From: a virus
Reading direction: 5' to 3' (one strand)
Length of the DNA stretch: 64,000 nt
IMG/VR virus record: IMGVR_UViG_3300032087_003094
Location: 1-64,000 of that record
In this document: positions 1-64,000 of the stretch, in pieces
Numbering within the stretch: the stretch's first letter is position 1
How the letters are laid out: each line of letters opens with the position of its first letter
The notes under the pieces: generated by a model
Told to the model about the DNA's origin: nothing
What the model saw: the letters and a program-made list of their open reading frames with translations, nothing else
The model's database searches: none
Position numbers and translations under genes: made by a program

Positions 1-91
1 ATATGGGGATTATATTATTTTTGATGTAGGGCAGGACGGCTGTATAGTTAACTATTCAAATAAAATTAATATTGAAGATTGGGAAGGAGAG
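1..91 (+). repeat. Exact direct repeat of 39457-39547
   Basis: 91 nt identical by direct comparison; first difference is T/C at 92/39548. Confidence 0.95.
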
Positions 92-99
92 TAATAACA

Positions 100-345
100 A
101 TGAGTGAATATTCACAAGGTATCTGCCAAGACGGCACCGCAATAATGAAAGATGGAGAAATGCTAACAATTGAAGAAATTTTATCGGAGCTTAGAAAGGC
201 CGAGCAACTACAAAAAGAGAATGAAGAAAGCTTTAGAAAGGGGTTTTGGGCTGGTTATGAGGATTCTAAATGTTTTCCTGATGAAAGTAACATATTGCAG
301 CGCTATACAGCTCTAATCGAAAATAGGAATAGCCATGACCAATAA
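100..345 (+). CDS. Hypothetical protein; C-terminus shared with 39556-39804
   Basis: ATG at 100 after GGAG; shared EQLQKENEESFRKGFWAGYED segment. Confidence 0.7.
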   Translation: MSEYSQGICQDGTAIMKDGEMLTIEEILSELRKAEQLQKENEESFRKGFWAGYEDSKCFPDESNILQRYTALIENRNSHDQ

Positions 346-388
346 AATAACAATACATAACGAGTCAAACTAGTTTATAATGCATATA

Positions 389-483
389 CGCGGCTAAGAG
401 CTTGATTGATCCCTTGCTTTCCTCCCTCCCCTTGAGTTAGCCGCGCATTATTTCGATAAAGGGGATAAAAACTTGAGGGGTTA
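389..483 (+). ncRNA. C4-like antisense/leader RNA with downstream targets
   Basis: TATAAT at 376-381; stem 389-397/437-445; internal loops complementary to 459-465 and 475-483. Confidence 0.55.
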
Positions 484-486
484 CAA

Positions 487-999
487 ATGATAGACCTAAA
501 AACCTGCACAAGAGCCGATTTTATAAAGGCTTACACAAACCTAGAAAACTCACATAAGCACCTAGAAAGCGAAGTTCATTATCTTAACGAACGCCTCCAG
601 GAATACGAAGGCATTCAAACTGATGATGAAAAAGAAGCTGAGTTTCAGAAATTCTGGACGATGTATGAAAAGAAAGGAAACCTCAAAACTACTCGCGCTA
701 GATGGAACAAGCTAAGTAATAAGAAAAAGAAGCTAATATTCGACCATCTACCCAAGTACATAAAATCAACCTATAAAGATGCGAGATACCCATCAAGAAA
801 GAACGCAGAAGTCTATATCAGCAAAGAGGCATGGCTTGATGAGATAATCGAGAATAAAGACTATCAGAAGTTTTCACCACAGCCAGCAGTGGGAAGCGCA
901 TCATTTAAGCCAAGCCCGATAAAAAATAGAAGCAAGGAGCTTGAAAGGCTTAGAGAGGAAAGTAAATCGGTCAACATTAAAGAGAGGTTAGGATTATGA
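487..999 (+). CDS. Putative phage replication protein (initiator C-terminal-like domain)
   Basis: FQKFWTMYEKK...KNAEVYISKEAWLDE resembles the C-terminal motif of phage replication proteins; homolog in B. Confidence 0.55.
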   Translation: MIDLKTCTRADFIKAYTNLENSHKHLESEVHYLNERLQEYEGIQTDDEKEAEFQKFWTMYEKKGNLKTTRARWNKLSNKKKKLIFDHLPKYIKSTYKDARYPSRKNAEVYISKEAWLDEIIENKDYQKFSPQPAVGSASFKPSPIKNRSKELERLREESKSVNIKERLGL

Positions 1000-1880
1000 A
1001 GCCTGTAATGGTGTGCAGTTTTAGCGGCGGACGAACTTCGGCTTATATGGCCAAGTGGCTAATCGACAACAAATCAAATGAATTCGATTTAAAATTTGTT
1101 TTTGCTAACACCGGCCTCGAGCATGAAAAAACTTTAGATTTTATTAATCGTTGTGATAATGAGTGGAGGTTAAATCTAGATTGGATCGAGGCTGTTACGC
1201 ATAAAGAGCTAGGAAAAGGTCAAACCTATAAAGTGGTAGACTTTAATGCTGCCTCAAGGAGCGGCGAGCCTTATAAGCTTTTAGCGTCTATCGAAGGCAT
1301 TCCATGCCCAACGCGACCAATTTGCACCGACAGACTAAAGAGCGCAATCTTAATCAAGTACCGAAACCAGTTTGGGAAAAAAGCGCGTAGTGCTATAGGA
1401 ATAAGGATTGATGAAATAGATCGCATGAATCCAAATTTTGACAAGCAAAGAATTATTTACCCTCTTATATCAATGCGGCCCACAACCAAGTCGGAGATAT
1501 TAGACTGGTGGCGCCAGCAACCTTTCGATCTGGAGATTGAGGAGCATTTAGGTAATTGTGTAACGTGCTGGAAAAAATCAGATAGGAAGCTTTTAACTAT
1601 AGCAAAAAACCACCCTGAAAGCTTTGAAGTTTATAGGGAAATAGAGAAAAAACATAGCTCGATACTCTCAAAAAAAGATGGAAGCATTGAAGGGGTAGAT
1701 AAGAAGATTTTTAGGAATAAGCGCTCAGTGAATGATATTTTTGAAGCGTCGAAAGGCGGGTTTGTGGAGTTTAAAGAGCTTGATAGCGGGTATCAGTTGG
1801 ACCTGCTGGGGTTGGATAGTTATAACGGCTGCTCGGAATCTTGCGAGCCGTTTTAGCTAAATTAAAGAGAGGTTAGGATT
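976..1880 (+). repeat. 20-bp direct repeat ATTAAAGAGAGGTTAGGATT flanking the PAPS reductase-like gene
   Basis: Copies at 976-995 and 1861-1880; a single near-copy at 40424-40443. Confidence 0.9.
996..1856 (+). CDS. PAPS reductase family protein (PP-loop)
   Basis: SFSGGRTS PP-loop, FANTGLEH, GNCVTCWKK, terminal GCSESCEPF. Confidence 0.85.
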   Translation: MKPVMVCSFSGGRTSAYMAKWLIDNKSNEFDLKFVFANTGLEHEKTLDFINRCDNEWRLNLDWIEAVTHKELGKGQTYKVVDFNAASRSGEPYKLLASIEGIPCPTRPICTDRLKSAILIKYRNQFGKKARSAIGIRIDEIDRMNPNFDKQRIIYPLISMRPTTKSEILDWWRQQPFDLEIEEHLGNCVTCWKKSDRKLLTIAKNHPESFEVYREIEKKHSSILSKKDGSIEGVDKKIFRNKRSVNDIFEASKGGFVEFKELDSGYQLDLLGLDSYNGCSESCEPF

Positions 1881-2281
1881 GTGAGTCAAGACAAAAAAGA
1901 AAACTATTGCGCTAGATGTTCAAATTCTATCGGCGAGTCTAATGGTATAAGCAGAATTCATAATAGTTTCACTGGTAAAGTTTTATATAAAGGGTCTGGA
2001 ATTTGTGGCGTATGCAGCTCTGAAATTTGGAGAGAGGTAAAGAGTAATGAATAACGGATTAATAATCTACCAAGTGATGAGGGTTTTAGCAGCTCAGCCC
2101 TTTGTTGAGATTGTAAACTTTCAGCAGAAGAGAATAAGTAAGCATAACAAAAACCCGCAAAATCATTTTGGTTACAATTTTGAGAGGATTAGCTGTGAAT
2201 AACAATAACTGGATAGATGTGAATCACTGTAGATTGTGCAGCGAAGTTAATCAAAACGCCACCAAAGCAAAAGGATAGCGA

Positions 2282-2449
2282 ATGAACTGGCAACGCAAAA
2301 ACAAATACTACACTGATAGCGGCCCGTATCGAATATGCTGGACAGATGCCAGACCCACGTTATTTATGTGCAGTTATAAAAAAGAGTTCATCGGCAAGTC
2401 AAACAATGCCGAGGAAGCCAAGCGAATTTGTGAAAACCACTCTATTTGA
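2282..2449 (+). CDS. Small hypothetical protein (MNWQRKNKYYTDSGPYRICW...)
   Basis: 55-codon ORF conserved in B at about 41370-41540. Confidence 0.65.
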   Translation: MNWQRKNKYYTDSGPYRICWTDARPTLFMCSYKKEFIGKSNNAEEAKRICENHSI

Positions 2450-2471
2450 TAGAAGGGTTAGATATGTTAAC

Positions 2472-2660
2472 TCACTCACCTAAAGCTATAAGCTCTGACA
2501 ATTTGATATTCCAATAATCTGCATATTCTTGAAGTGTTGAAATCTTGATATCTTTACTTCGTTTTTGATAGTTGATGGTGTTAATAGACTTATCTAGCCC
2601 GCTAGCAACATCAGAAGTCGAAGAATTAAATTTAACCATGGCCATTTGTAAACATTTCAT
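2472..2660 (-). CDS. Cro/CI-type HTH regulator
   Basis: Small divergent ORF with HTH pattern DVASGLDKSINTINY...ISTLQEYADYW. Confidence 0.7.
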   Translation of the reverse strand: MKCLQMAMVKFNSSTSDVASGLDKSINTINYQKRSKDIKISTLQEYADYWNIKLSELIALGE

Positions 2661-2679
2661 ATTTTAGTTAAAATACCTA

Positions 2680-2708
2680 TTGTAATAGTTCGATTGTTAG
2701 ATTATACT
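2680..2708 (+). promoter_or_regulatory. Sigma70-like promoter of the recombination operon
   Basis: TTGTAA-17-TATACT; equivalent TTGCAT-16-TATACT at 41728-41755. Confidence 0.65.
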
Positions 2709-2741
2709 AGATTCATCAGATAAAGTTAAGGAATAAATTAA

Positions 2742-3119
2742 ATGAGTCAATTAACATTTTTTGAACAGTACATAGAATCAGTATTTCATCTTGAGGATGT
2801 AACGTACATCTCAGACGAGCAAGCATTGTCAAATCTAGGATTTATGCAAGCCAATCATCCTGATGAATACCAAGAGATAATCGACCAAGTGAACGCTAGT
2901 TACGAGCCTCCAGAGGGTAAAGAGTGCGACCTTGACGAGCTAACCGACGCTATCACTAATAGAAATCCAATGAAATTCGTTATGGAATTAGAGCGATTAA
3001 TGATAGTCGAGCTCAAAGCTTACATTGACGAAGTGCAGCAAGAAATCGCATACAAGAGCGCGAATCCAGAGCGTGATAGCTCTTACGAAGCTAAGCAAGC
3101 AAGGGAGATAGCGTTATGA
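2742..3119 (+). CDS. Hypothetical protein (homolog of 42365-42742)
   Basis: Near-identical copy in B. Confidence 0.8.
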   Translation: MSQLTFFEQYIESVFHLEDVTYISDEQALSNLGFMQANHPDEYQEIIDQVNASYEPPEGKECDLDELTDAITNRNPMKFVMELERLMIVELKAYIDEVQQEIAYKSANPERDSSYEAKQAREIAL

Positions 3120-3201
3120 AACTAAAATCAAGAGCATTAACATTCTTTGAAATGTGGCTAATTATATTATCAATGCTAGCTATTTACGGAGTGATATTCT
3201 A

Positions 3202-3375
3202 ATGAAAACAGAAACTCAAGAAATGGAGAGCAATTTAGCTCTCGCATGGTTCGAGGGTGTTTATACTCAAGACCAAGCGCAGGTATCGGCTGAGCTGCAA
3301 AGTGTAAGCTTTGAAAATGTAGTCAATGAATACTCAAAACTTTATCACGAAACGGAGAGCTTGAGTAATGGATGA
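3202..3375 (+). CDS. Hypothetical protein (homolog of 43538-43720)
   Basis: Shared MKTETQEMESNLALAWF start defines the likely ATG. Confidence 0.7.
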   Translation: MKTETQEMESNLALAWFEGVYTQDQAQVSAELQSVSFENVVNEYSKLYHETESLSNG

Positions 3376-3817
3376 ATTAGATAGATTCAAGCGGCCGTTC
3401 TCTGAAAATGAAATACATTGGAGGGTTGGCAGAAAATCAAAGGATGGAAACACAGCGACTGCTCTAGCTTATATTAACGCTAGAGATGCAATGAAAAGGC
3501 TTGACGAGGTCGTTGGGATTGATGGCTGGCAAGATGATTACCAGGAAACAGCAACAGGTCGAGTTATTTGTAAGTTGTCCGTGAAAATTGGCGATCAGTG
3601 GATAACTAAATCCGATGGTGCTGGCGGGACTAATATTGAAGGTGAGAAGGGTGGCATATCTGACGCATTTAAAAGAGCTGCGGTTAAGTTTGGTATAGGC
3701 CGATACCTATACTATCTTGATGGGTCTCGTTATTTACCTGTCGATAAATGGGGGAAATTTACAACCCTCCCTCAACTGCCAGATTGGGCAAAACCTAAAA
3801 AGGATAAAAAGCAATGA
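3368..3817 (+). CDS. Rad52/Sak-like ssDNA annealing protein
   Basis: YINARDAMKRLDEVVG and EKGGISDAFKRAAVKFGIGRYLY motifs. Confidence 0.85.
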   Translation: MDELDRFKRPFSENEIHWRVGRKSKDGNTATALAYINARDAMKRLDEVVGIDGWQDDYQETATGRVICKLSVKIGDQWITKSDGAGGTNIEGEKGGISDAFKRAAVKFGIGRYLYYLDGSRYLPVDKWGKFTTLPQLPDWAKPKKDKKQ

Positions 3818-4311
3818 CTGCATTATATGAATTAACTGATCAATACAACAAAGCTCTAACCGAGCTATTAGATATTGAAGGCCTAGACAGTGAGTCATTC
3901 AGTGACACAATGGAAGGTTTGGAGCTAGAGCTTAAAGATAAGCTTTTTAATACTGCTGCCTATATGCAGAATATTGAAGCCGATGCAAAAGCCTTAAAAG
4001 AGGCCGAAGATAGAATTAAAGCAAGGCGAATCATTATTGAAAATAAAGCCAAACTACTAAAAGAGTACGTAAGATTTAATCTCGAACTGTCTGGGATCCC
4101 AAAAATTGAACGCCCAGAGTTTAAGCTGTCACTAAGAAAAGGTGTCGAATCTGTAAATGTGAAAGAGGAATCGTTAGTCCCTCAGAAATACATTGTTACT
4201 AAAACAATAAAATCAGTAGACAAAAAGCTAGCAGCAAAAGCTTTAAAATCCGGCGAAATTATTAACGGCCTAGAGCTAAAGCGCGGCAAGTCGTCACTAG
4301 TAATTAAATAA
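3814..4311 (+). CDS. Siphovirus Gp157 family protein
   Basis: MTALYELT start, coiled coil, C-terminal GEIINGLELKRGKSSLVIK. Confidence 0.8.
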   Translation: MTALYELTDQYNKALTELLDIEGLDSESFSDTMEGLELELKDKLFNTAAYMQNIEADAKALKEAEDRIKARRIIIENKAKLLKEYVRFNLELSGIPKIERPEFKLSLRKGVESVNVKEESLVPQKYIVTKTIKSVDKKLAAKALKSGEIINGLELKRGKSSLVIK

Positions 4312-4341
4312 ATCAACCATTAACCACAAAAGGGTAATTAA

Positions 4342-4659
4342 ATGAAATACGGTGTAAATCTTAAGATTGACGTTTCAAAGATTGAAAAAGGTAGATTATT
4401 CAAAGGAGCTAAAGGTACTTATTTGGATGCTCAAGTGTTTATCGATGTTAATAATGTTGGCGAATTCGGTGATAACGGAATGATAGTTCAGCAAATAACC
4501 AAAGAAGAACGCCAAAACGGCGTGAAAGGGCAAATACTGGGCAATGCCACAGTGTTCTGGAAAGGTCAGAGTGATAACAATCAAACTAAACAGCAAACAC
4601 CAAGCCAGCCTCAAGAGCAGAGCTTTGATAATAGTTTTGACGACGACATACCCTTTTAA
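4342..4659 (+). CDS. Non-canonical ssDNA-binding protein
   Basis: Acidic DDDIPF tail; occupies the same slot as the canonical SSB in B. Confidence 0.7.
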   Translation: MKYGVNLKIDVSKIEKGRLFKGAKGTYLDAQVFIDVNNVGEFGDNGMIVQQITKEERQNGVKGQILGNATVFWKGQSDNNQTKQQTPSQPQEQSFDNSFDDDIPF

Positions 4660-4679
4660 CCATAAGGAAGGTAACGAGA

Positions 4680-4961
4680 ATGAAAATTAATAAATTTATA
4701 ACTATTTCAAGTAGAGGTTCTTGTCGTTTAACAGCTTCTAGCCCGCGCTTAGAAGTGGATGAAATATCTATGAACTTAAAGATAGAAATACCTGACGCTA
4801 TTTTTAAAAAGCCAAGACTTGAAGCTAGTATCACCGTTCCAGATGAGGCTGCAGCTACCGAAGCAATGAAAAGCATTGTCTACGATAATGTTGAAGAAAT
4901 TGTCAATCAAGCAACTGGACTGAATTTTTCAATTTCAGTAAAGAAATATGACGATGAATAA
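4680..4961 (+). CDS. Hypothetical protein
   Basis: ORF with RBS in the operon. Confidence 0.65.
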   Translation: MKINKFITISSRGSCRLTASSPRLEVDEISMNLKIEIPDAIFKKPRLEASITVPDEAAATEAMKSIVYDNVEEIVNQATGLNFSISVKKYDDE

Positions 4962-4985
4962 CCTAACACAAGAGCAAGCTAAATA

Positions 4986-5411
4986 ATGACGTCCTTTACC
5001 ATAAACTCAAAGCAAGCAGTGGAAAGCTTCCAAGAGTTTATACAAGAAGAATTCATAAAAGAAAAATACTTGATAGCTAAGATAGTCAAGGCTACTAGGC
5101 TGCAAATACAAAACCGATGGATTCAAAAGTTTTATAATATGGTATCAGGTCAAACAGGACAACCAAGGCAAACGCTAGTCAACCACTGCAAGTATTATCA
5201 CGGCATGCCTATACTGTTAGCAGACCAGCCAGAACAAGCGGAACTATGGCGTAAAATGATGATTCCGTTAACAGAGCAAGAAAGGCTTGCAGCTATGGAA
5301 ATAACAGCTGTAACAAGCTTGATGGACGTTCACGAGTGTTCAGATTATATTAAACAATTAATAGCTCATTTTGACCACTGTGAGCTACCAAGAAAACAAT
5401 GGAGAGAGTAG
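4986..5411 (+). CDS. NinB-like recombination protein
   Basis: RLQIQNRW and VTSLM motifs, upstream of ninG; near-identical copy at 46179-46604. Confidence 0.6.
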   Translation: MTSFTINSKQAVESFQEFIQEEFIKEKYLIAKIVKATRLQIQNRWIQKFYNMVSGQTGQPRQTLVNHCKYYHGMPILLADQPEQAELWRKMMIPLTEQERLAAMEITAVTSLMDVHECSDYIKQLIAHFDHCELPRKQWRE

Positions 5412-5725
5412 TGATAATTCTAAAAGATGATGAATGTCTTGAAAAGATGGAGCCTCTAAGGGAGGAGTGGGCGCAAGAAGCTATCGATAAATACAAAAAA
5501 ATGATTATTGATCTAGATGCGCTTCACCTTAAAGCCTTCGCAGATCAATCAAACCCATCATTAACTATGACAAGTTATAGCAATATTAAGGCGATCGAAG
5601 CGAGAAAGGCAATCATAGAAGACCCATTCAGAAAAGCGCTACTCAAGCAAATTACCCTCTTAATGCAATTTGACAAACCTAGATTTTTGGTGGCTAAACA
5701 AAGAATAAATAATGCCAAACGCTAA
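5399..5725 (+). CDS. Hypothetical protein
   Basis: Coupled ORF between the ninB-like gene and ninG. Confidence 0.6.
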   Translation: MERVVIILKDDECLEKMEPLREEWAQEAIDKYKKMIIDLDALHLKAFADQSNPSLTMTSYSNIKAIEARKAIIEDPFRKALLKQITLLMQFDKPRFLVAKQRINNAKR

Positions 5726-6281
5726 ACTAAAATGCGTACAGTGCGGAAAAAGATCCCCCCGAGAGGAAATGGAAAAGGTTAACAATATAAGCTCAGTATG
5801 CGGTTTAGATTGCAAGGTTGAATGGGCGGCCAATAAGGGCAAAAAAGCAGTTAAGGATAAAGCCAAGAAAGACCACGCACTAAGAAAGAGGGTATTTTAT
5901 GCAAACGATCTCAAAACAAGAAAAGCAGCAGCAAAAAAAGCATGTCACGAATATATTAGGCTTCGAGATAAAGGAAATCCCTGCATTTGCTGCGGAAGGC
6001 CTCTTGGCTATAAGTTCGACGCAGGACACTACCTTGAGTCGGGCAATAATCCCAAAATTAGATACGATGAAAATAACATCCACGCACAAAGCGTCTACTG
6101 CAATCAGTATCAAGGTGGAAACTCAGATGACTACCGTGGCCGCCTTATTGCCAAGATTGGAGTTGACGAGGTTGAAAGATTAGAATCAATGAAAGGCGGC
6201 ACAGTAAAGCGAACCGCTCAAGATTACAAAGATATTGAAGATTACTACAAAGATAAGATTAAACTATTAGAGGGTAAGTGA
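5712..6281 (+). CDS. ninG: NinG/Rap junction endonuclease
   Basis: YIRLRD..PCICCG..DAGHY..RYDENNIHAQ..CNQ. Confidence 0.9.
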   Translation: MPNAKLKCVQCGKRSPREEMEKVNNISSVCGLDCKVEWAANKGKKAVKDKAKKDHALRKRVFYANDLKTRKAAAKKACHEYIRLRDKGNPCICCGRPLGYKFDAGHYLESGNNPKIRYDENNIHAQSVYCNQYQGGNSDDYRGRLIAKIGVDEVERLESMKGGTVKRTAQDYKDIEDYYKDKIKLLEGK

Positions 6282-6488
6282 ATGGCTTCAAAAAAAGTAA
6301 TAACCTATGAGCTAGATCAAGATAGTGGCCTATTAACAATCTACTGCAACTTAATAAAAGTTGTTGAATGGTCCTGCGATGATACGGATAGTGTTGAATA
6401 CCTTATGGATGACTTCAAAAAGATTTTTGATTTGGGGGTTTCTTTTGGCTCACAGGTTAAAGATGAAATTATGCGTGACGGTCATTAA
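6282..6488 (+). CDS. Hypothetical protein
   Basis: ORF abutting ninG; absent in B. Confidence 0.55.
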   Translation: MASKKVITYELDQDSGLLTIYCNLIKVVEWSCDDTDSVEYLMDDFKKIFDLGVSFGSQVKDEIMRDGH

Positions 6489-6543
6489 GTGATGATAGAA
6501 AAAATACAAACAGGACGGCAATATAAAAGATAAGCAGCTTAAC

Positions 6544-6615
6544 AGCGTCTAGCACTTCTTTTCTGTGGGTTTTGGCCGAATATCCCAACTCCCACCTTAT
6601 GCTGGGCGCTTTTTT
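6544..6615 (+). terminator. Structured RNA element / intrinsic terminator
   Basis: Nested stems followed by a U tract; conserved with a compensatory change at 47474-47545. Confidence 0.7.
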
Positions 6616-6629
6616 ATTGAATGTAAGGA

Positions 6630-7124
6630 GTGAGGATGATAACCCAAGAAAAATTAAATGAAATTTTTTATTATGACGGTTTTGATCTCTACTGGGCTAA
6701 ACCTACAGGCAGAATGAGGAAGGGGGATTTGGCTGGTACTGATTCTCACGGTTATAGGCAGGTTCAAATCAATAAAAAAATATACAGGGTTCACCGTATT
6801 ATATGGTTTATGGCATTTGGGCATTTTCCTTACGGTGTCATTGATCATATTAACGGCAACAGGTCAGATAATAGACTGCAAAATCTAAGAGATGTCACGT
6901 ATAAAGAAAACAATAGAAATCAGAAAATATCCAAGATAAATACCAGCGGAATGACTGGGGTTTCATGGAATTGGAGGAGGAAAAAATACAGTTCTTATTT
7001 TTGGAGGAATGGAAAGCAAAACTACTTAGGGTTCTTTTCTTCTTATAAAGACGCTGTTAATGCAAGGTTGGAAGCCAATAAAAAACACGGATTTCATAAA
7101 GGTCATGGAAAAGCCGCGGTTTGA
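6630..7124 (+). CDS. HNH homing endonuclease with AP2-like domain
   Basis: HRIIW..IDHINGNRSDNRLQNLR..NTSGMTGVSW..YLGFF. Confidence 0.9.
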   Translation: MRMITQEKLNEIFYYDGFDLYWAKPTGRMRKGDLAGTDSHGYRQVQINKKIYRVHRIIWFMAFGHFPYGVIDHINGNRSDNRLQNLRDVTYKENNRNQKISKINTSGMTGVSWNWRRKKYSSYFWRNGKQNYLGFFSSYKDAVNARLEANKKHGFHKGHGKAAV

Positions 7125-7431
7125 GGTGGCTGGATATATAGTTTATAATTAAAACTCAACTAACTTAAGGCTTATGAAATGAGTTTATCGTGTTTTATGC
7201 AATCGTCCAAGATAACTCTTGGCGAATATACAGAAAGGGATGGGGAAGACCTGTCCTTTCTGGATTCGGCGAGATTGAAACTGCAATAGAAATATCGCGG
7301 TTATATGACGTTGTATTAACAGAATTTTATAACCTTCCAGCATTGAGGATAGCATAATGAACGATCTATATATTGACGGCGGAGATGGACAAGGCGACGA
7401 TCCACCGGACAACGACTCAAAAAAATAAATA

Positions 7432-7911
7432 ATGGGCGCATATTTTTCAATAGCAGCATTAGCTCTATGCTTATTTGCAGATAGAAAGCACAAACTCACG
7501 GCCACACTGTTAGCTGCTGAGTTTTTTGCTATGTGGGCTATTCATTACTTTGGGCATACTGTTTTTGGTGTTTTAGGTGAGCCCGAACTTTATTTAACTT
7601 ACATTTTAGCTCAGATGCCTATACTATTTTTTATGTGGCTAACTCATTGCTCTTTGTATGTCCGATGGTTGATCACAATATCTCTAGTGTATAATGTTTT
7701 AACTATTTCTCAGTATTCACTCAATGTGATTGAGTTTTACGGAAACTATAAAATATTCATGCAGGTTATAATGGTGCTTCAATTAGCATTTCTAGTGTGG
7801 GCGAACAGGTATGTCACTGTCTATCGAAGAAGTAAAAAACCTAATCATATTAGCAATGGCTATAAGCTGTTTAATATTCGCCCTCGGATGGGTGTTAGGG
7901 GTAAGGTTTGA
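7432..7911 (+). CDS. Multi-pass membrane protein
   Basis: About five hydrophobic segments. Confidence 0.65.
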   Translation: MGAYFSIAALALCLFADRKHKLTATLLAAEFFAMWAIHYFGHTVFGVLGEPELYLTYILAQMPILFFMWLTHCSLYVRWLITISLVYNVLTISQYSLNVIEFYGNYKIFMQVIMVLQLAFLVWANRYVTVYRRSKKPNHISNGYKLFNIRPRMGVRGKV

Positions 7912-8357
7912 AAAATCAAGAGCTAGAGCAGAAGCAGAGCGAGACCGTATTAGCCGAGGCTTTGACAGGATTCGCAAAAATTCAGACCCAGCTGGCGGAA
8001 AATCAAGCAGAACAAACAGCTAGCACCAATAAAAGAATAGATAAGCTATCAGATAAGATGGGAGAACTGGTTGAGGTCATGGTTAGGTCTGAGGAAAGGC
8101 ATAATACTCACTCAGAAAAGAATGAGCGATTAGAAAAAAACCAGATTGAGCTAGGTAAAGAATTTAAAGACTACAGAAAAAACAATGATGATCGCATTGT
8201 AGATATAGAAAAGCAGGTTTTATTACTAGAAAACGACGACAAATCCAACAAAGAGAACTCAAAAGACAGGAAGCAATTAAGGAATACAATTATTGGCGGA
8301 GTGGCCGTTGTTATGATTTTATCTATCCTTGGCATTGTGTTTGGGGTTAAGCCATGA
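7908..8357 (+). CDS. Coiled-coil protein with C-terminal transmembrane segment (lysis-associated)
   Basis: Heptad-rich, terminal TM, precedes the putative endolysin. Confidence 0.6.
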   Translation: MKNQELEQKQSETVLAEALTGFAKIQTQLAENQAEQTASTNKRIDKLSDKMGELVEVMVRSEERHNTHSEKNERLEKNQIELGKEFKDYRKNNDDRIVDIEKQVLLLENDDKSNKENSKDRKQLRNTIIGGVAVVMILSILGIVFGVKP

Positions 8358-8752: not shown

Positions 8753-8872
8753 TATGAGTGCAGAAACGGTAATTGAAAGAGGTGGGGATTGGCGTCCTTG
8801 TTGCGGGTATTTTGTTTTTGACGACGAAGTTTGTGAATGTGAAAAACGTCGAGAAGGTGGTGGAGACGGCTA

Positions 8873-10412: not shown

Positions 10413-10428
10413 GTCGGAGCTATGACTC

Positions 10429-54947: not shown

Positions 54948-55014
54948 CAATAGTTTTTGTCTATATGCTTTATTATGATAGAATTAACATGTTTAAATCA
55001 CACGAGTTCAGCCC

Positions 55015-57060
55015 ATGCCTAATATGTCAGATCAAGAATTGCTATCAATTATAAGCAATGCTGAATCGCAAGCAGTAATCTATAACGGTGAATTTAGCCG
55101 TATTAACGAAAGACTTCTAAAAGACTACCTCCAAGACCCTTATGGCGACGAGGTGGCCGATCAATCTCAAGTTATATCACCAGACGTTCAAGACGTTGTT
55201 GAGTCCGATATGCCATCATTAGCAAGGGTATTCCTCGGCTCTAGTCAACCGGTAGTGTTCGAACCTAGATCAAACAATGAAGATGAAATAAAAGAAGTCG
55301 AAGAAAAGAATAAGTACGTCAATTATCTAATAATGAATAAGCCTGATTCATATCAAACACTATTCAACTGGATGAAAGATGCAGAAATACAAAAGAACGG
55401 AGTATTAAAATACTTTATCGAGGACTCAAGAAAAACGGAAGAAGTGTCGTATTCTGGAGTTAATGAAGATGAGCTACAACAGATTGTATTAGATTTACAG
55501 CGCGACCAAGTAAAAAAGATTGAAGTAGCATCAAGCTCAGAGGATGAATTTGGGTCATTTGATATTACATTTAAAGTGACTAGAGGCTCACAAGAGCTAA
55601 AGATAATCAATGTTCCTAATGAGCAATTTCTTATATCTAAGAACGCATCAACGCTTGATAATGCCGAATTAGTGGGCGACAAGGTTAATAATAAGACCCG
55701 TGGTCAATTGCTTTCTGAGGGTATTGATAGAGAATTAATTAATCAATTACCTAGGGTGTCGGTGCAAAGAGACAACAATTCAACTCTTAAGAATATCAGG
55801 AATAGAGATACAGGCCAGTCAGTTGAAGGTGAAGAAATAAACGACTGGGCTAACGAGCTGGTAGAAATTACAGACCTTTATGTAATGGTTGATTATGATC
55901 AAGACGGAGTAGCAGAAAGGCGACATATTCTAAAGTCTGGTAACCACATATTAATCAATGAAGCCTTCGATCATGTTCCATACGCCTCATTAAGTTGCTT
56001 ATTAATGCCTCACAAAGCTATCGGCAGAAGTCGAGCAGAGCTTACACAGCAAACACAGAGAGTTAAAACCGTACTAATGCGTCAAACTCTTGACAATATG
56101 TATGCTGTTAATAGGCCTCGAAATGTATTGCATCCCGATGTAAATATCGACGACTACCTACAAATGCGACCTAATGGAGCGGTAAGGCTTAAGTCTAAAA
56201 CTCAAGTTAATCCAGCTAACGCTGTAGTCCCTTTAGTTGTACCCCCTATGATGCAGCAATCACTACAAGTGGTTCAATACATGGACTCAGTAAGAGCGCA
56301 ATCAACAGGCACTTATCTAGCCTCTCAAGGGCTGGATGCTGACTCAATCGCTAAAGAAACAGCCACGAGATTTATGGGCGTACAAGAAAAAGGCGATGAA
56401 AAAATTGAACTAGTGGCCAGAACTATGGCTGAAACTGGATGGAGAAAACTCTATGAGGGTGTCGCTTGGATGGTCTCTCACTTCCAGGATGAAGAAACAG
56501 AGATATTTGTCCTTGGTGAATCTTTAAAGGTCAACCCTTCTGGCTGGCGTTATGAACACTTTGTATCGTCTAAAGTGGGTTTAGGTGCAGGAAGTCCTGA
56601 AAAGATGGTTGAGTCAATGCAGGGTATCTTGGGAATTCAGCAGCAATTACAAGCTGCAGGCTCGCCAATGGTTGACCAAGTTAAGCTGTATAATACGCTT
56701 GATGACATTATTAAAGGTTTAGGCCTTAAGCAGACGGATAAGTTCTTTAATGACCCAGAAAAGCCAGAGCAATTATTATTGGCTGAAAATGAAATATTAA
56801 AAGCTCAGTTATTGCAAACACAACAATTGCTAGAGCAATCACAAAACCCGTTAGCCGAAGCTGAAACTATCAAGGCTCAAGCTAGGCTGATAGAAGCTCA
56901 AGGTAAAAGTGGATTAGAGGCGGCAAAAATAGCAGAGAATGCAAGACAGTTTAATATAAAAACCGCCCAAGATGCTAAACAACATCAAGACGATTTAGTA
57001 TTTGATTTAACTAAGCTGGAAGTTGATAGCGGTGTCAATATTCAAGGGGCCAACGTATGA
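55015..57060 (+). CDS. Portal protein
   Basis: 681 aa after terL; SQVISPDVQDVVE and DYDQDGVAERR motifs. Confidence 0.85.
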   Translation: MPNMSDQELLSIISNAESQAVIYNGEFSRINERLLKDYLQDPYGDEVADQSQVISPDVQDVVESDMPSLARVFLGSSQPVVFEPRSNNEDEIKEVEEKNKYVNYLIMNKPDSYQTLFNWMKDAEIQKNGVLKYFIEDSRKTEEVSYSGVNEDELQQIVLDLQRDQVKKIEVASSSEDEFGSFDITFKVTRGSQELKIINVPNEQFLISKNASTLDNAELVGDKVNNKTRGQLLSEGIDRELINQLPRVSVQRDNNSTLKNIRNRDTGQSVEGEEINDWANELVEITDLYVMVDYDQDGVAERRHILKSGNHILINEAFDHVPYASLSCLLMPHKAIGRSRAELTQQTQRVKTVLMRQTLDNMYAVNRPRNVLHPDVNIDDYLQMRPNGAVRLKSKTQVNPANAVVPLVVPPMMQQSLQVVQYMDSVRAQSTGTYLASQGLDADSIAKETATRFMGVQEKGDEKIELVARTMAETGWRKLYEGVAWMVSHFQDEETEIFVLGESLKVNPSGWRYEHFVSSKVGLGAGSPEKMVESMQGILGIQQQLQAAGSPMVDQVKLYNTLDDIIKGLGLKQTDKFFNDPEKPEQLLLAENEILKAQLLQTQQLLEQSQNPLAEAETIKAQARLIEAQGKSGLEAAKIAENARQFNIKTAQDAKQHQDDLVFDLTKLEVDSGVNIQGANV

Positions 57061-57353
57061 ATGAGATTGAGCAGGCAAGGCAAGCTAAAAGCGACCTTAA
57101 TCGAGCAGAATTAGCTAGACAAGTTAAAGATAATTCAATCTATCAAGAGGCTTTTATGATGTTTAGAGCTGAATTGATGGAGAAATTTACAACAACAAAC
57201 TACAAACAAAGTGATGAGCGCGATGAAATATGGCGCAAAATGCAAACAATTCAATACGTCCAAGACTACCTAGAGGAAGTCATGGATACTGGGAAACTTG
57301 CAAACGAGACTCTTTCTATTTTGGAAAGGGCTAAAAAAACTATAGGATTATAA
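57057..57353 (+). CDS. Hypothetical head-associated protein
   Basis: Between portal and scaffold. Confidence 0.65.
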   Translation: MNEIEQARQAKSDLNRAELARQVKDNSIYQEAFMMFRAELMEKFTTTNYKQSDERDEIWRKMQTIQYVQDYLEEVMDTGKLANETLSILERAKKTIGL

Positions 57354-57354
57354 A

Positions 57355-58335
57355 ATGTTAGACAACCATCTTGGATCTAATGAAGAATCATTATTGAACA
57401 GAATTTCTCAAGTCAGAAACCCATCGGAGCCAAATGAGCCAACCGAAGTGGAAGAAAGCCTTGAGGTTACACCAGAAGAAGTAGAGGCGGAATCAGTCGA
57501 AGAATTAGCAACTGATGAAGTCGAGCTTGAAGCTGAGGAGTTGGATGAGTCAGCACCACAAACTGAAGAATCTGAAGAGTTTTACGTCGATATAGATGGG
57601 CGTGAAATATCCTTTAGTGATATCAAGGAGTGGGAGCAGGGCAACCTAAGACAATCCGACTATACTCGCAAAACACAAGAAGTAGCCGATAAGCGTAAAG
57701 CCTTAGAAGCTCAAGAACAAAGCCTTACTAGTAAAACAGCGGAGCTAGATGAAAAAATAGCAATGCTTGATACTTATATCGCTGAGTTTGACACGTCCGA
57801 AATTGATGGCATGTCACTTGATGAATTGCGAGATCTTGACCCAGGTCAGTACTTGAAGGTAAAAGAAGATCAAGAGAAAAGAAAAGCAGCCTTGGAAGCC
57901 GCCAAGAACTCTCGATCAACTTTATCTAGCGAAGAAATGCAAGCAAAGCAAAACGTTGAACTGTCAAAGCTTATTAAAAACAATCCTCAATGGATTAAAG
58001 ACGGCAAAGAAACCGAAAACTATCAAAACGATATGTCTATGGTTATGAGCTATCTAGATAAGTTAGGATATGATGACGCATCAAAGCAAGGAATCCTGAC
58101 TAATGGTCACGGACAAGTCTTTCTAGATGCAGCAAGGTTCAATGCAAGCAAAAAAGCTAACGCATCAATTGCCAAGAAAGTACGAAAAGCGCCTACGGTC
58201 ACTAAACCAAGTGGAGCAAGTAAGAGTCAGGCAACTTTAGCCCTAGAAAAAGCTAGAGAACACCATAAAAAGGTGGGAACTCCTGAGTCAGCGCTTGCAT
58301 TAAGAAAAGCTCAACGAAAATTTAAAGGTGAATAA
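57355..58335 (+). CDS. Scaffolding protein
   Basis: Acidic N-terminus, LRQSDYTRKTQEVA motif. Confidence 0.85.
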   Translation: MLDNHLGSNEESLLNRISQVRNPSEPNEPTEVEESLEVTPEEVEAESVEELATDEVELEAEELDESAPQTEESEEFYVDIDGREISFSDIKEWEQGNLRQSDYTRKTQEVADKRKALEAQEQSLTSKTAELDEKIAMLDTYIAEFDTSEIDGMSLDELRDLDPGQYLKVKEDQEKRKAALEAAKNSRSTLSSEEMQAKQNVELSKLIKNNPQWIKDGKETENYQNDMSMVMSYLDKLGYDDASKQGILTNGHGQVFLDAARFNASKKANASIAKKVRKAPTVTKPSGASKSQATLALEKAREHHKKVGTPESALALRKAQRKFKGE

Positions 58336-58337
58336 TT

Positions 58338-59291
58338 ATGGCAACTCCAACCAACACAACTAGTACATACGATGCGATTGGTAATCGCGAAGATTTGGCC
58401 GATGTAATTTATGACATTAGCCCAACTAAAACCCCGTTTATTAGCGGTATTGCTCACGTTCCTGCAACAGCAACTAATCACGAGTGGCAAACTGATAGTT
58501 TAGGCGCAGCGGCTAACAACGCCGTTATTGAGGGTGACGACGCTACAACCACAGCAGCGGTAGCAAGCGTTCGATTAGGTAACCGAACTCAAATCAGCAG
58601 CAAGGTTCCTCGCGTTACTCGAACTCAGCGACAAGTCAATTCGGCTGGCCGTGGTGATGAGCTTGACTATCAGATTATGAAAATGTCTAAGCTTCTCAAG
58701 AATGATATGGAAACTGCACTTTTAGCTAATAAAGCTAAGGTCACAGGTTCTGAGTCGGTCGCTAGAGAGCTTGCTGGTATCGAGTCTTGGATAGCTTCAA
58801 ACACTGATTTAGGTACTGGTGGCGTGGCTCCAACTGGTGATGGTACGGACGCAAGAACATCAGGAACAGACCGTGCATTTGCTCAAACTCAACTGGACGG
58901 TGTTTTGGCTGATATTTGGGATGCAGGTGGTGATCCGGACACAATCATGGTTGGGTCGACTGTTAAGCAGGCCTTATCGGGTTTGGTTAATGGTGGCGCA
59001 TCTGGTGCAGCCCAAAGAACTATCGACGGCACCGGGTCGACTGTTAACACGTCTATTGATGTTTACGTGTCTGACTTTGGTGATTTGGCGGTAGTTCCGA
59101 ATCGTTTTCAGGTTCAAGAGTCCATGCTTATTTTAGAGATGGATAAGTGGGCTATGGCTTCACTAGCAGAGTTTCAAGAGACCGAGCTAGCAAAAACCGG
59201 TGATTCAGATAGAGTTCAAATCCTATCAGAATACACTCTAGAAGCTAGAAACGAAGCAGCAAATGGTATTGTTTCTGACCTTAACGGGTAA
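58338..59291 (+). CDS. Major capsid protein (SU10/DUF5309-like)
   Basis: GNREDLADVIYDISPTKTPF..LAKTGDS..EYTLEARNE. Confidence 0.9.
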   Translation: MATPTNTTSTYDAIGNREDLADVIYDISPTKTPFISGIAHVPATATNHEWQTDSLGAAANNAVIEGDDATTTAAVASVRLGNRTQISSKVPRVTRTQRQVNSAGRGDELDYQIMKMSKLLKNDMETALLANKAKVTGSESVARELAGIESWIASNTDLGTGGVAPTGDGTDARTSGTDRAFAQTQLDGVLADIWDAGGDPDTIMVGSTVKQALSGLVNGGASGAAQRTIDGTGSTVNTSIDVYVSDFGDLAVVPNRFQVQESMLILEMDKWAMASLAEFQETELAKTGDSDRVQILSEYTLEARNEAANGIVSDLNG

Positions 59292-59307
59292 TCTTAACAA
59301 TTAGATT

Positions 59308-59325
59308 GGGGCGAAAGCCCCTTTC
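59308..59325 (+). terminator. Terminator after the capsid gene
   Basis: GGGGC-GAAA-GCCCC followed by T-rich sequence. Confidence 0.7.
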
Positions 59326-59341
59326 TTTAACAGGTGAATAT

Positions 59342-59832
59342 ATGAGCGAAGAAAAAAAGAAACCTAAACCAAAAAAAGCAAAAGTTCTAGTATTAAGAAA
59401 TTGCTGTGATTTGGAAGGTAATCAATTAAAGAAAGGTCAGCAGGTTGTAATTAGCTCAAAATCCTTAGATGCTCTCAAGGAAGTAAAGGCCGTAAAATGA
59501 ATGGCGTACTGCTTGATGATGATAAGTTTACAGGTATTAAAGAGGTCTATCACAAGGAAGGTAACAAGATTACCATCCACAAGAGTGCTGACGTATCTAA
59601 AGAGCTTAATCAAAATCAAATAGAATATAATAACGCCTCATCAGGTTGGAAAGGGCATTTTCATAAAGTGGCATCAATTCCCACTATTATGATCGAGATA
59701 TGGCGCGAAGAATTAAAGAGAAAAGGTTGTCCAGACGTCAATCCTCTATCAAAAAACAACAGGCCGTTTCTGATGGCAAAGTTAAATAATGGCGATTACG
59801 CAAAGCTTAGAACAAAAGGCGGCAATATATGA
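59342..59832 (+). CDS. Two small ORFs (59342-59500; 59497-59832)
   Basis: Coupled ORFs; HKVASIP motif in the second. Confidence 0.6.
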
Positions 59833-60455
59833 GTCTTAACACATATAACAACTTAAAAAAGTCAATTATTAATTGGTCTAAGCGTTCAGATTTGGATTTG
59901 TTGGTAGATGATTTTATAGACCTCACAGAAGTGGATATGTTTAAATCGAGCAGAATTCACGAAGCTTTAGAGATAAGGGGTGAAGAAACAACCTCAAGCG
60001 CCAGTGTTAGCACTAAGTTTTTTGCGCTGCCTGATAACTATCACTCATGGCGATCAATACGCCTTGCTTTATCTGATGGTAGCGGTGAAATAAACTACAA
60101 GGCACCTAACCAGCTGCAAAGAAGAGGCGGCACGGGCATGCCAAGGTATTTTACTATTGGCTCTCAGGTTGAATTCGATATAACGCCAGATCGAACGTAC
60201 ACTGTAGAAGTTAACTATTTTAAAAAGCCGGCTTCTTTATCGCCAACACAAACAACTAATATTGTTTTAGATAACCACCCAGATATCTACCTGCATGGTG
60301 CGCTGTATATGCTGTTCAATTACGCTCAAGACGACCAGCAAGCACTAAGGCATCAAGCTTTATACTCAGACGCTATAAACGGCGCTAACCAAGCCGATGA
60401 AGATGGAAGGTATGGGCCGGCTCCATACGCTAGAATTGACGGGCCTACGCCGTGA
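59829..60455 (+). CDS. Head-tail adaptor protein
   Basis: TYNNLKKSIINW.KRSDL..TNIVLDNHPDIYLHGAL. Confidence 0.8.
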   Translation: MSLNTYNNLKKSIINWSKRSDLDLLVDDFIDLTEVDMFKSSRIHEALEIRGEETTSSASVSTKFFALPDNYHSWRSIRLALSDGSGEINYKAPNQLQRRGGTGMPRYFTIGSQVEFDITPDRTYTVEVNYFKKPASLSPTQTTNIVLDNHPDIYLHGALYMLFNYAQDDQQALRHQALYSDAINGANQADEDGRYGPAPYARIDGPTP

Positions 60456-61858
60456 CATTTAAAAAAAACATTCCAATTAATATAACTGGGCCAAGCTACC
60501 AAAGCAGGTCTAAGCCTTTGTCTGTCCAGCAGACTAAAAATTTGTATCAAACAGTTGTAGAAGAAGGTAAAGATAATTACGTAATGCAGCAGTTTGCAGG
60601 ATTGACCCTTAAGGATTCAGCATCAGGGATTGACCGCGGCATGGTTAAAATGAAAGGCGTTCCCTACTGGGTATCAGGCAATAACCTGTATTCATTTAAT
60701 AATCAAGGGTTACTAACCAACTTAGGAGCTATTCCTGGTGGTGATCGATGCATCCTATCAAATGACGGAACCAATATAATTATTGTTTCAAGCTCGGGCG
60801 TTTTTAAGTATGACGGCGCAATAACCGAAGTAACAGACTCTAATATTACTGGTTCAGCAGCGGTAACATTTCTTAACAGTCAGATGATTTACACTAAGGA
60901 CCGGTTATTCACTATTGCCAACCCCAATCAACCAGACTCAGCAAGCGGGTTAAACTCAGCAGCAGCAGAATCTAAACCTGATGATTTAGTGATTGCTTAC
61001 GCATTTCAACAAAACGCCTACATGTTTGGAAAAGAATCAACCGAGCCGTGGTGGAATACTGGTGAAGGAAACCCTCCCTTAGCTAGGATTGATGGTCAAA
61101 TCTTTGAGGTTGGCTGCGCCTCTAAATATTCAGTGGATAACACAGATGAGTTTTTATACTGGCTAGGAGATGATTTTGCTATTTATAGAGCGACTGGAGG
61201 CAATAAAGATAGAGTTTCCACCGCTGCTATATCTCATGCAATTGAGAGTTATTCAAAAATAGATGATGCAATAGGTCAAACTTTCACGCTAGAGGGAATT
61301 AATTTCTACATGATAACTTTCCCATCAGCCGACAAAACGTGGTGCTTAAATGAGTCCCTTGGGAGTAATGGATGGTTTGAGTTATCCAGCGGATTAAATG
61401 ATGGTAAGTACCAAATTACTAGCATTATTCAAGCTTATGGTAAGTTGTGGGGCGCTGATGATGGTAATTTGTACGAGTTAGATGTTGATGTTTTTGACAA
61501 CGCTGGCCAAGAGATACAGCGAAGAAGGGTAACGAGCTCGATCAACGGTAAGGTTTTAGGTGCTCCAGGTGCCAGGTTGCAAATGAGCCGCTTTGAGGTG
61601 TTGATGGAGAAAGGTAACGGCCTTGCAAGTGGTCAAGGTGATGACCCCAGGATTCAATTTGAAGTCTCTTATGATGGCGGGAGATCGTGGGTCCCGAAAG
61701 GGTGGGGAAGGGTTGGCCGTAGAGGCGAGTTTGTCATTAAGGTTGAAATGTTTAATCTTGACTCATTTTTAGACTGTATTGTGAGGCTAACAACGACTGA
61801 CGCCAATAAATATACTTTGTATTCGGCATCGGCTGATTTAAGGCTTGCGGGGTGGTAA
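60452..61858 (+). CDS. gp10-like DNA stabilization/tail hub protein
   Basis: AAAESKPDDL, STEPWWNTG and RVSTAAI motifs; parallels 25349-26752. Confidence 0.8.
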   Translation: MTFKKNIPINITGPSYQSRSKPLSVQQTKNLYQTVVEEGKDNYVMQQFAGLTLKDSASGIDRGMVKMKGVPYWVSGNNLYSFNNQGLLTNLGAIPGGDRCILSNDGTNIIIVSSSGVFKYDGAITEVTDSNITGSAAVTFLNSQMIYTKDRLFTIANPNQPDSASGLNSAAAESKPDDLVIAYAFQQNAYMFGKESTEPWWNTGEGNPPLARIDGQIFEVGCASKYSVDNTDEFLYWLGDDFAIYRATGGNKDRVSTAAISHAIESYSKIDDAIGQTFTLEGINFYMITFPSADKTWCLNESLGSNGWFELSSGLNDGKYQITSIIQAYGKLWGADDGNLYELDVDVFDNAGQEIQRRRVTSSINGKVLGAPGARLQMSRFEVLMEKGNGLASGQGDDPRIQFEVSYDGGRSWVPKGWGRVGRRGEFVIKVEMFNLDSFLDCIVRLTTTDANKYTLYSASADLRLAGW

Positions 61859-61859
61859 A

Positions 61860-62150
61860 ATGGCTAACGTAAACCCGCCACCACAAATAAAACTACCAAA
61901 GAAGTTTCAGCAAGACAGGGATGCAAGGATATATTTCGACCATTTAAGTCGGGTTATACTTCAATTATGGGAAAGAACAGGCGGAAGTAGCGATCTAATT
62001 AGCGAGGCCGCAACAAATTTTAACACTAGCTCAGCCTCAGCTATATTTGATATATACAGTAGGATTGGGTCTGACATACCGGTAACTATCGATACAACTG
62101 GATTTACTATCGACAACACAAAGCAAACAACCGACAAAACAGAGGTCTAA
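61860..62150 (+). CDS. Small tail protein
   Basis: LWERTGG motif; C-terminal TIDTT repeats. Confidence 0.6.
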   Translation: MANVNPPPQIKLPKKFQQDRDARIYFDHLSRVILQLWERTGGSSDLISEAATNFNTSSASAIFDIYSRIGSDIPVTIDTTGFTIDNTKQTTDKTEV

Positions 62151-62152
62151 CC

Positions 62153-63454
62153 GTGGCTCAACAGAATTTAACAATAGGCACAGCAGACGCCAAAGCGGGT
62201 GACACTTATTTTGACGCCTTCACAAAGGTTGAGGCTAATTTTACAGAGCTTTACTCTCAAAACCTAACGGGTAGAGTTGTTGTATCTAGCGCAAGCGATT
62301 TAGCTGGTACTTTGGATAGCACTAAAGAATATTTTTTGGATGGCGTTATTGATATGGGGTCTCAGTCTATCGAGGTTCCATCAGGCGGCCTATACATCAG
62401 CGGCTACAACTTTGATACTTCAAAACTAACATCTGCACAAAGCTCTTACACAATGTTTACTTCACCAACTGGCGGAAGTGGTAACGTGGTATTTAAAGAC
62501 TTCGCTATCGAGGTAACAGGTACAGGCTCTCAGGTTTATAATTTAGAATCTGACACAGGAGCAGAAGCTTTTGAGGTCGCAAGAATAAACTATAACAACT
62601 GCACAAGTCTTGGAGAGATTGACAACTACAGACAGGGGTTAGAGATTGGTACTGGTCGTTTTGGTGGATCGCCTAGCCTAACCCTAACGGGTGCGTGGTC
62701 TGGTGGCTATCTTGCCGAAACGCTAATAGTTAGGAGTCTGACCGATGGGTCGTATTCTCTATTTCAAGCGGGGGCTGGGTTTGTTATGGCTTCACGGTTT
62801 AGAAGCAATATTAATGCTGACCTACCAGCAACTGCAAGTCTATTAGATTTTGCGCCTAGCAACTTTACCAACCCCTCAACGCTACAATTACAAGGGTGTA
62901 TATTGTCAAGGTCTGGCTCTTTTAATGCAGCGGACACCAATTTAACGCCTAATATCGACTCAACAGACCTAGAAAGCTCTTGGCGTGACAATATCGGCTT
63001 ACCTAATACATTTGAGGGCGGCACATCAACAATCACAACCGAGACGGCGACAACAGTCAGCGCATCTAGTACTTATTATGATTTAGCTGGCACTTGGACC
63101 GCTACTGACCTCCAGCACTTTGACGCACCATCTAACGGGCAGCTTAGGCACACCGGCCAATCGCCAATAGAATATAGAGTATCTGGAAATCTGGTTATTG
63201 ATGGGACTGCTAATGATGAAATTAATGTAAAAATAAGAAAATACGATGACAGTGCAGCTACTTTTAGTGATGTTTTAATACAGGCTAGGCAGATCAACTC
63301 ATTAGTAGGCGCTAGAGATGTGGCCTTTTTTACTCTAATCGCTAACGTAACACTAGAACAAAATGATTACATTTACTTACAAGTCAGCAATGAAACCGCG
63401 GCCAACAATGTAACAGTTGAGCTCGATTCTTTCTTTATGATTGAGACTAGATAA
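62153..63454 (+). CDS. Fibre/appendage-like protein
   Basis: N-terminal IGT..GD..DAFTKVEANFTELY motif typical of fibre attachment segments. Confidence 0.6.
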   Translation: MAQQNLTIGTADAKAGDTYFDAFTKVEANFTELYSQNLTGRVVVSSASDLAGTLDSTKEYFLDGVIDMGSQSIEVPSGGLYISGYNFDTSKLTSAQSSYTMFTSPTGGSGNVVFKDFAIEVTGTGSQVYNLESDTGAEAFEVARINYNNCTSLGEIDNYRQGLEIGTGRFGGSPSLTLTGAWSGGYLAETLIVRSLTDGSYSLFQAGAGFVMASRFRSNINADLPATASLLDFAPSNFTNPSTLQLQGCILSRSGSFNAADTNLTPNIDSTDLESSWRDNIGLPNTFEGGTSTITTETATTVSASSTYYDLAGTWTATDLQHFDAPSNGQLRHTGQSPIEYRVSGNLVIDGTANDEINVKIRKYDDSAATFSDVLIQARQINSLVGARDVAFFTLIANVTLEQNDYIYLQVSNETAANNVTVELDSFFMIETR

Positions 63455-63789
63455 TGGCAACTCCAACTCAATTGGCAGACAGCGCGACCAACTCGGTAGC
63501 TGATACAGCTCAGGCAATCTTTACAGCGCCATCGACAGGTAATGGCGTTTTAATCGATAGCTTTACAGCTGCAAATCAAAGTACCGCGAATGCAAGTTAC
63601 AAGGCTTACATAACAGGTCTAGGCGAGCCGGCTACTAATCCAGTCATACCCTACAGAATAGTCGTTTGGAATGAGATAGATTTAGGGGGTGGGTTAATAA
63701 ATCAATTAATCCCTCCTGGGGGAGCCTTGCAAGTAGAGCAGTCTACAGCTAATAGTATTTATTTTACAGTCTCGGGTAAGGCGGTTTGA
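63454..63789 (+). CDS. Hypothetical virion protein
   Basis: Beta-rich ORF in the tail operon. Confidence 0.6.
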   Translation: MATPTQLADSATNSVADTAQAIFTAPSTGNGVLIDSFTAANQSTANASYKAYITGLGEPATNPVIPYRIVVWNEIDLGGGLINQLIPPGGALQVEQSTANSIYFTVSGKAV

Positions 63790-64000
63790 TTTGCGAGGTT
63801 TTAAGCAACCCAAAGGAAATAAAAAGCCTTGTTTTAAAGGTTAGTCAATTAGCTTTTGAAGATGGTGTAAATGCCGACAATTGGACGCCAAAAGCATTTG
63901 GTAATAATTGTTGGTTAGCGATTAAAGAGGAAGGTGAGATATTTGGCTTGGCGGCTTTTAGGGCTATACAAGCGCACACGGTTGAAATACACATGTATGC
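63786..64000 (+). CDS. Partial ORF, possible GNAT-fold/P22 gp14-like protein
   Basis: TTG start overlapping the previous stop; open to the edge; GEIFGLAAF..TVEIHMY. Confidence 0.45.
   Translation, partial: MICEVLSNPKEIKSLVLKVSQLAFEDGVNADNWTPKAFGNNCWLAIKEEGEIFGLAAFRAIQAHTVEIHMY

Follow-up and report, generated by a model that had tools for sequence, protein, structure and literature searches.

A 74.5-kb seawater virus record holding two related phage genomes in tandem is very probably an assembly chimera

The stretch of DNA analysed here (the window, 64,000 bp) comprises bases 1-64000 of IMG/VR record IMGVR_UViG_3300032087_003094, whose full length is 74,480 bp and which IMG/VR classes as "linear" and rates as 100% complete. 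An earlier sequence-only reading had described the window as two sibling phage genomes in tandem and had called for a look at the contig outside it; there the record continues to 74480 and completes most of the second unit. The features on which the argument depends are the following, in record coordinates.

1..39456, plus strand: unit A, 39,456 bp, complete and circularly closing, as judged by self-BLAST, PHROG and Pfam matches and collinearity with the single-unit genome G001
1..91, plus strand: first copy of a 91-nt word that is exact in A and B; the record begins on its first base
16063..22067, plus strand: head module of A, with TerL (Terminase_6), P22-type portal, scaffold and P22-type coat
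35495..39456, plus strand: early-left region of A, homologous to record bases 70611-74480 at 87-95% identity in patches
38974..39547, plus strand: near-identical node of A and B, with 5 differences in 274 comparable nt; one contig of run X1 covers exactly this stretch
39128..39553, plus strand: 141-codon gene across the junction, intact over the joint; distant homologues align with residues 1-140
39171..39247, plus strand: 77-nt word identical to the record's last 77 bases (74404-74480)
39457..39547, plus strand: second copy of the 91-nt word, where the record crosses from A's end into B's start
39457..64000, continuing to 74480 of the record, plus strand: unit B, with the gene order of A, a Terminase_3 terminase and an SU10-type head module
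39548..47547, plus strand: early-right region of B, homologous in patches to A 92-6617 at 83-92% DNA identity
53526..59291, plus strand: head module of B, with TerL (Terminase_3), SU10-type portal, scaffold and SU10-type capsid

Self-BLAST showed that A and B are collinear and share one circular permutation, and the long ORFs of the record are all on the plus strand. Unit A runs from the early-right genes (1-6617) through the middle genes, the P22-type head module and the tail genes to the early-left genes (35495-39456). Unit B comprises 35,024 bp of the record and lacks about 209 bp, the counterpart of 39248-39456, for closure; with these bases added, the unit measures about 35.2 kb. In length, each unit (39.5 kb for A and 35.2 kb for B) matches whole genomes of its kind. 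Self-comparison detected almost no DNA similarity between A at 6.6-35.5 kb and B at 47.5-70.6 kb. The mean 21-mer frequency of the record is 1.03, and the repeated k-mers expected of a same-genome concatemer were not found in it.

The virion modules of the two units are of different types. As had been proposed from the sequence, A is P22-like and B combines an SU10-type capsid with a terminase then labelled PBSX-type (Terminase_3 here), all of which passed Pfam cut-offs. TerL of A matched Terminase_6N/6C at the Pfam cut-offs, its portal scored 395.3 bits against P22_portal (cut-off 26.1), and its coat scored 266.8 bits against P22_CoatProtein (cut-off 24) and is 34% identical to the coat of P22 itself. 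The capsid, portal and TerL of B scored 303.7, 479.1 and 115.1 bits against SU10_MCP, SU10_portal and Terminase_3, respectively, in each case above the Pfam cut-off. A Hc3-type head-closure gene occurs once in A and once in B. The earlier statement that each unit has its own recombination, lysis, terminase, portal, scaffold and capsid genes holds for all of these except lysis in A: an endolysin-like PHROG match lies at 48572-48907 in B, whereas no PHROG lysis match was found in A at 7432-8752. The product of A 33322-35466, previously called a tailspike, and its counterpart in B gave no Pfam, PHROG or PDB match, and the name is a positional guess for the last tail genes of both units.

The early region common to A and B is a mosaic with identities of 83-99%. 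The exact identity of 1-91 with 39457-39547 was confirmed, with the first mismatch at 92/39548, and so was the substituted state of the other shared blocks, which are 83-95% identical. By self-BLAST, 1-999 is 83% identical to 39457-40447, and the remaining shared blocks are 86-95% identical; the part of A's early-left region that matches 70611-74480 is 35495-39247. Among the encoded proteins, NinB of A and NinB of B share 98.6% of their amino acids, the two NinG/Rap proteins are 32% identical, and Erf is present once in each unit, from different PHROG families.

The record starts and stops within a single 141-codon gene, in each case at the border of a word common to A and B. Record base 1 corresponds to codon 110/111 of the junction gene, and B's own copy of this gene, which begins at 74361, is truncated at codon 40 by the record end. 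Both ends thus fall in one gene, and neither is a natural genome end. Together with the internal joint, they coincide with borders of exact A/B-shared words, namely the start, the 77th base after the last difference, and the second 91-nt copy. The last difference between A and B (39170 T, 74403 C) directly precedes the final 77 bases of the record. We infer that the record end reflects a de Bruijn graph built at k = 77, in which an edge finishes on the first k-mer that A and B have in common again beyond a difference; for 150-nt reads, 77 is a common choice of top k. A combination of k = 91 at the start with k = 77 at the end was also considered; a single k of 77 fits the start as well as the end only on condition that the base preceding the 91-nt word, which for B lies outside the record, is not the same in A and B.

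In IMG/VR, the junction gene has relatives of just 30-50% identity, located in unrelated phages. They establish the gene as real and are uninformative on the joint. An exact 30-nt word from the shared segment gave 0 matches in IMG/VR, a set from which the record itself may be missing. Likewise, a 35-nt word spanning the fork and a 35-nt word from the start of A gave 0 matches in JGI metagenome contigs, from which the record may also be missing, so that these empty scans carry no weight for or against the joint. The earlier observation that neither host DNA nor an integrase lies between the units was upheld: the junction is inside a phage gene, and searches for tyrosine integrases (PF00589) and serine recombinases (PF00239) found none in the whole 74.5 kb, while positive controls were detected.

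To compare the abundance of the two units, as the sequence-only reading had proposed, we used Logan contigs of sequencing runs placed on 31000-50999, so that all depths given here are contig k-mer depths and not the result of read mapping. A seawater metagenome run (X1) contains 96% of the words sampled from 34500-44499 and is the probable source run of the record. In X1, the A-specific part is represented by a 30,198-nt contig at depth 17.4 and the B-specific part by a 10,656-nt contig at depth 11.7. The A early-left contigs have depths of 18.4 and 22.4, and the B early contigs have depths of 10.6 and 10.7. The A and B contigs have no common 31-mer and differ little in GC (0.42 vs 0.41). Coverage is thus unequal (17.4 vs 10.6-11.7), a result that the sequence-only reading had named as one that would refute the tandem: the abundance of A in X1 is about 1.5-fold that of B, and depth about halves over the joint. 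These depths exclude a population made up of cointegrates only, and are compatible with cointegrates mixed with free A.

A 574-nt X1 contig (depth 22.3) spans 38974-39547 alone. On the left it begins one base past an A/B difference (38973), and on the right it stops where the two sequences fork (39548). The stretch 38974-39547 is therefore a node common to two paths and forked on both sides, as in a figure-8.

A second sample of the same study (X2) yielded a 925-nt contig at depth 7.99 that covers 38974-39561 and continues for 337 nt. This contig differs from B at 11 listed places within 39702-39776, and at all 11 its letters are those of A at 243-317; adjacency of the shared node to the start of A therefore occurs in nature. 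At 39006, 39045 and 39048 the letters of this contig are B-type, so that its node is a mosaic and the contig could also be read as a joint of B's end with A's start. Closure of A as its own circle, which the sequence-only reading had set against a real tandem, is thus borne out at contig level, in that the sister-sample contig continues beyond the shared segment as the start of A, with the reservation that its node has B-type letters. In X2, the A tail genes are covered and the B-specific bases at 48.3-51 kb are almost uncovered, although missing contig cover is not evidence. Eight further runs (X3-X10) contain small shares of the sampled words; two of them, X3 and X4, gave short pieces at 95-99% likeness and a depth spike on a low-complexity repeat at 41.7-42.3 kb, and none of these runs enters the argument.

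Six sibling genomes from other records bear on how the early regions are normally connected. The closest to A, G001 (IMGVR_UViG_3300031841_003318; 38,108 bp, 95% complete), comes from another sample and has A's virion module, with TerL and MCP each 99% identical; it is collinear with A over 9182-33636 at 92-97% identity. Within about 2.3 kb, it passes from early-left sequence of the 35745-37689 type to A-like early-right sequence of the 934-999, 2259-2470 and 3797-4359 types. Five more siblings, from two samples and 34,433-36,238 bp in size, carry the early gene at 35803-36315 with 94-97% amino-acid identity. In these five, early-right follows early-left after 0.6-2.6 kb; in one of them (G017) the link crosses the ends of the record, and another (G019, 36.2 kb) is closed by a 45-nt terminal repeat. 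No second virion module was found between early-left and early-right in any of the six siblings of 34-38 kb. The head genes of G017 and G019-G021 are unlike those of A or B, and those of G018 belong to a distant third type. In seawater phages, the early-gene module of A, B and the six siblings thus occurs together with four or more distinct virion modules.

Relatives selected by capsid are of similar size. Closed records with an A-type capsid (65-71% identity) measure 37,814, 39,208 and 42,016 bp, and the isolates nearest to A by MCP are Pseudomonas phage AH02 (70%; 39,095 bp) and Vibrio phage 1.275.O (57%; 37,915 bp). Closed records with a B-type capsid (74-78%) and TerL (51-54%) measure 35,034 and 37,170 bp, and the isolates nearest to B are podophage records of 33-46 kb at 41-48%. 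Five relatives of B's TerL (G002-G006) had been considered as size witnesses for B and were dropped, as they are without B's capsid; the capsid relatives were used instead. A search for a stand-alone record nearly identical to B found none, and a search for isolated phages nearly identical to 7000-31000 gave no match.

Taken together, these data make it very probable that the tandem is an assembly artefact, in which two related seawater phage genomes of about 39.5 and 35.2 kb were joined through a short shared stretch. The sequence-only reading had held a chimera to be at least as likely as a real element; the unequal depth, the X2 contig leading into A's start and the six single-unit siblings favour it. 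In the mechanism that we propose, two related phages are present in one seawater sample and have in common a recombining early-gene module that includes the near-identical stretch of about 0.57 kb at 38974-39547. Two genomes that are circular or circularly permuted and have one common node form a figure-8 in a de Bruijn graph. The assembler, presumably with a k of 77, would have begun at the shared word, gone round the A lobe and returned to the shared node, where it would have taken B's exit, A's exit being already used or the pair support ambiguous. It would then have walked the B lobe and stopped on meeting the shared node again. The product of such a path would be a 74.5-kb "linear" record consisting of genome A (39,456 bp) and genome B (about 35.2 kb, minus about 209 bp).

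Chimeric contigs arise from mosaic phage genomes that share unitigs, as described for Phables (PMC10104058), and the authors of CheckV state that chimeras of closely related viruses go undetected and that k-mer frequency is raised by same-genome concatemers only (PMC8116208). Given that its 21-mer frequency is just 1.03, the present record therefore stands as "complete" despite holding two genomes. As in the published cases of chimeric contigs from mosaic phage populations (PMC10104058; PMC8116208), graph nodes are shared, and a path that joins different genomes passes as "complete". Unlike in those cases, the path here did not exchange modules inside a single genome length but ran through two whole genomes in turn, and the record is about twice the expected size. 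The record also resembles the same-genome concatemers shown by CheckV (PMC8116208, Extended Data Fig. 9) in that more than one genome length lies head to tail in the same permutation. Unlike in those concatemers, the units are different genomes, and the k-mer flag would not fire at a mean 21-mer frequency of 1.03.

The alternative is a real cointegrate of about 74.7 kb, circular or concatemeric, in which homologous recombination within the shared node would have joined A and B into one replicon with two virion modules. It has the same graph topology in its favour, since a single 74.7-kb circle holding the node twice would give the same figure-8 as two circles. The presence of Erf, NinB and NinG/Rap in both units would favour crossovers, and the X2 contig, whose letters change from B-type to A-type across the shared word, would be consistent with the second joint of a cointegrate. 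Nevertheless, we regard such a cointegrate as improbable, given the roughly 1.5-fold difference in depth between A and B in the probable source run, the single-unit state of all six siblings (34-38 kb, one of them closed), and the sizes of closed relatives of both capsid types (35-42 kb), neither head type being known here to take 74 kb. Moreover, it is well established that headful or unit-length packaging would cut a dimer to unit size. It is equally improbable that a persistent 74.7-kb replicon with two unrelated complete virion modules exists beside free copies of A. The real cointegrate or tandem element that the sequence-only reading had offered as its other explanation is thus disfavoured by the unequal depth and the single-unit siblings, although a minority of molecules may be joined.

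Such joined molecules would also be expected if the record captured a transient hetero-concatemer, a replication intermediate of a cell co-infected by A and B and sampled in a cellular-fraction metagenome. A and B do occur in one sample with recombination-prone homology, and phages of this kind generally replicate through concatemers (PMC8116208). We consider this explanation very unlikely, because the joints would be a small minority that short-read assembly would not favour, and because it is not needed to account for the unequal depth or the graph breaks and no data call for it. Tandem prophages do occur in bacteria, but two prophages side by side in a bacterial chromosome are a scarcely credible source of the record. 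Such prophages would be expected to bring att repeats, host DNA flanks and an integrase or recombinase, whereas host DNA is absent at both ends and between the units, no tyrosine or serine recombinase was detected in 74.5 kb by searches whose positive controls worked, the junction is inside an intact phage gene, the genes are all on one strand, and the units share a circular permutation broken at an arbitrary point.

With the tandem read as an assembly artefact, what lies beneath it is ordinary modular mosaicism, and A and B are two new phages within a mosaic group of marine podophages. Modular mosaicism is characteristic of lambdoid and P22-like phages. As in those phages, A and B share an early, recombination and nin-type region (Erf, Gam, NinB and NinG/Rap) and have unrelated virion modules, and their identity is patchy with sharp borders. 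Unlike lambdoid and P22-like phages, A and B are marine, have all their genes on one strand, have no integrase that could be found, and have uncultivated sequence relatives.

If the tandem were true, one replicon with two virion systems would be striking. Read as an assembly artefact, a publicly available record with a completeness rating of 100% consists of two genomes and escapes the k-mer check for concatemers. Comparisons of "copy 1" with "copy 2" within the record are then comparisons of two phages and not of paralogues, and covariation between the copies is between-genome variation. A, B and their six siblings thus provide a clean example of ordinary mosaicism.

One recombination cassette is swapped for another between units A (P22-type head module) and B (Terminase_3 and SU10-type head module), two related seawater phage genomes that were probably joined by assembly, and the flanks of the swapped segment are 86-99% identical between them. 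This cassette and the other features compared between the two phages are as follows.

Features compared between units A and B
3368-4311, A: recombination cassette, with a short Erf (phrog_1097) and a Mu Gam-like protein
43711-44844, B: recombination cassette, with a different Erf (phrog_155) and a full SSB
487-999, A: gene of 170 codons in a single ORF, with weak replication-initiator matches
39934-40447, B: counterpart of A 487-999, in two overlapping ORFs (39934-40149 and 40070-40447)
42090-42323, B: GCT-rich repeat with a 9-nt period, 16 overlapping copies, within ORF 41789-42364
6630-7124, A: HNH endonuclease gene, free-standing, downstream of NinG
42739-43449, B: HNH endonuclease, the N-terminal half of a 236-residue protein
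50016-52091, B: 691-residue protein with an SdiA-regulated (propeller-type) Pfam domain, encoded between lysis genes and terminase

The replication-type gene is split in B because an A-run near position 40094 carries one additional A relative to the A copy. Since contigs of X1, the probable source metagenome, cover this position thinly or not at all, the extra base could reflect a mistake in assembly, a genuine frameshift or a slippery site. The gene that follows also differs, being PAPS-reductase-like in A (996-1856) and encoding a DNA methyltransferase at the matching position in B (40636-41373). The HNH endonuclease genes, too, differ in location between the units. The GCT-rich repeat, which encodes an Ala/Asp/Tyr-rich stretch of its ORF, has no counterpart in A; two unrelated runs show depth spikes on it (64.9 for X3 and 133 for X4).

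Similarity between the last tail proteins of A and B (63% identity) is confined to 73 residues. Within A, a short segment of the last tail gene (35089-35151) recurs in a middle-region protein gene (11194-11256) with 81% DNA identity, and the same segment is present twice in the last tail gene of B (69330-69474 and 70164-70308 of the full record). The 691-residue protein of B and a 661-residue protein of A (11560-13545) share 41% identity across 193 residues.

The early-gene module (35495-39456 plus 1-6617 of the window; loci L304-L322) is shared patchwise, at 70-98% patch identity, with six or more further IMG/VR records, each 34-38 kb long. Among A, B and these records, at least four different virion modules are found. 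Together they are a clean example of a single early module combined with many head types.
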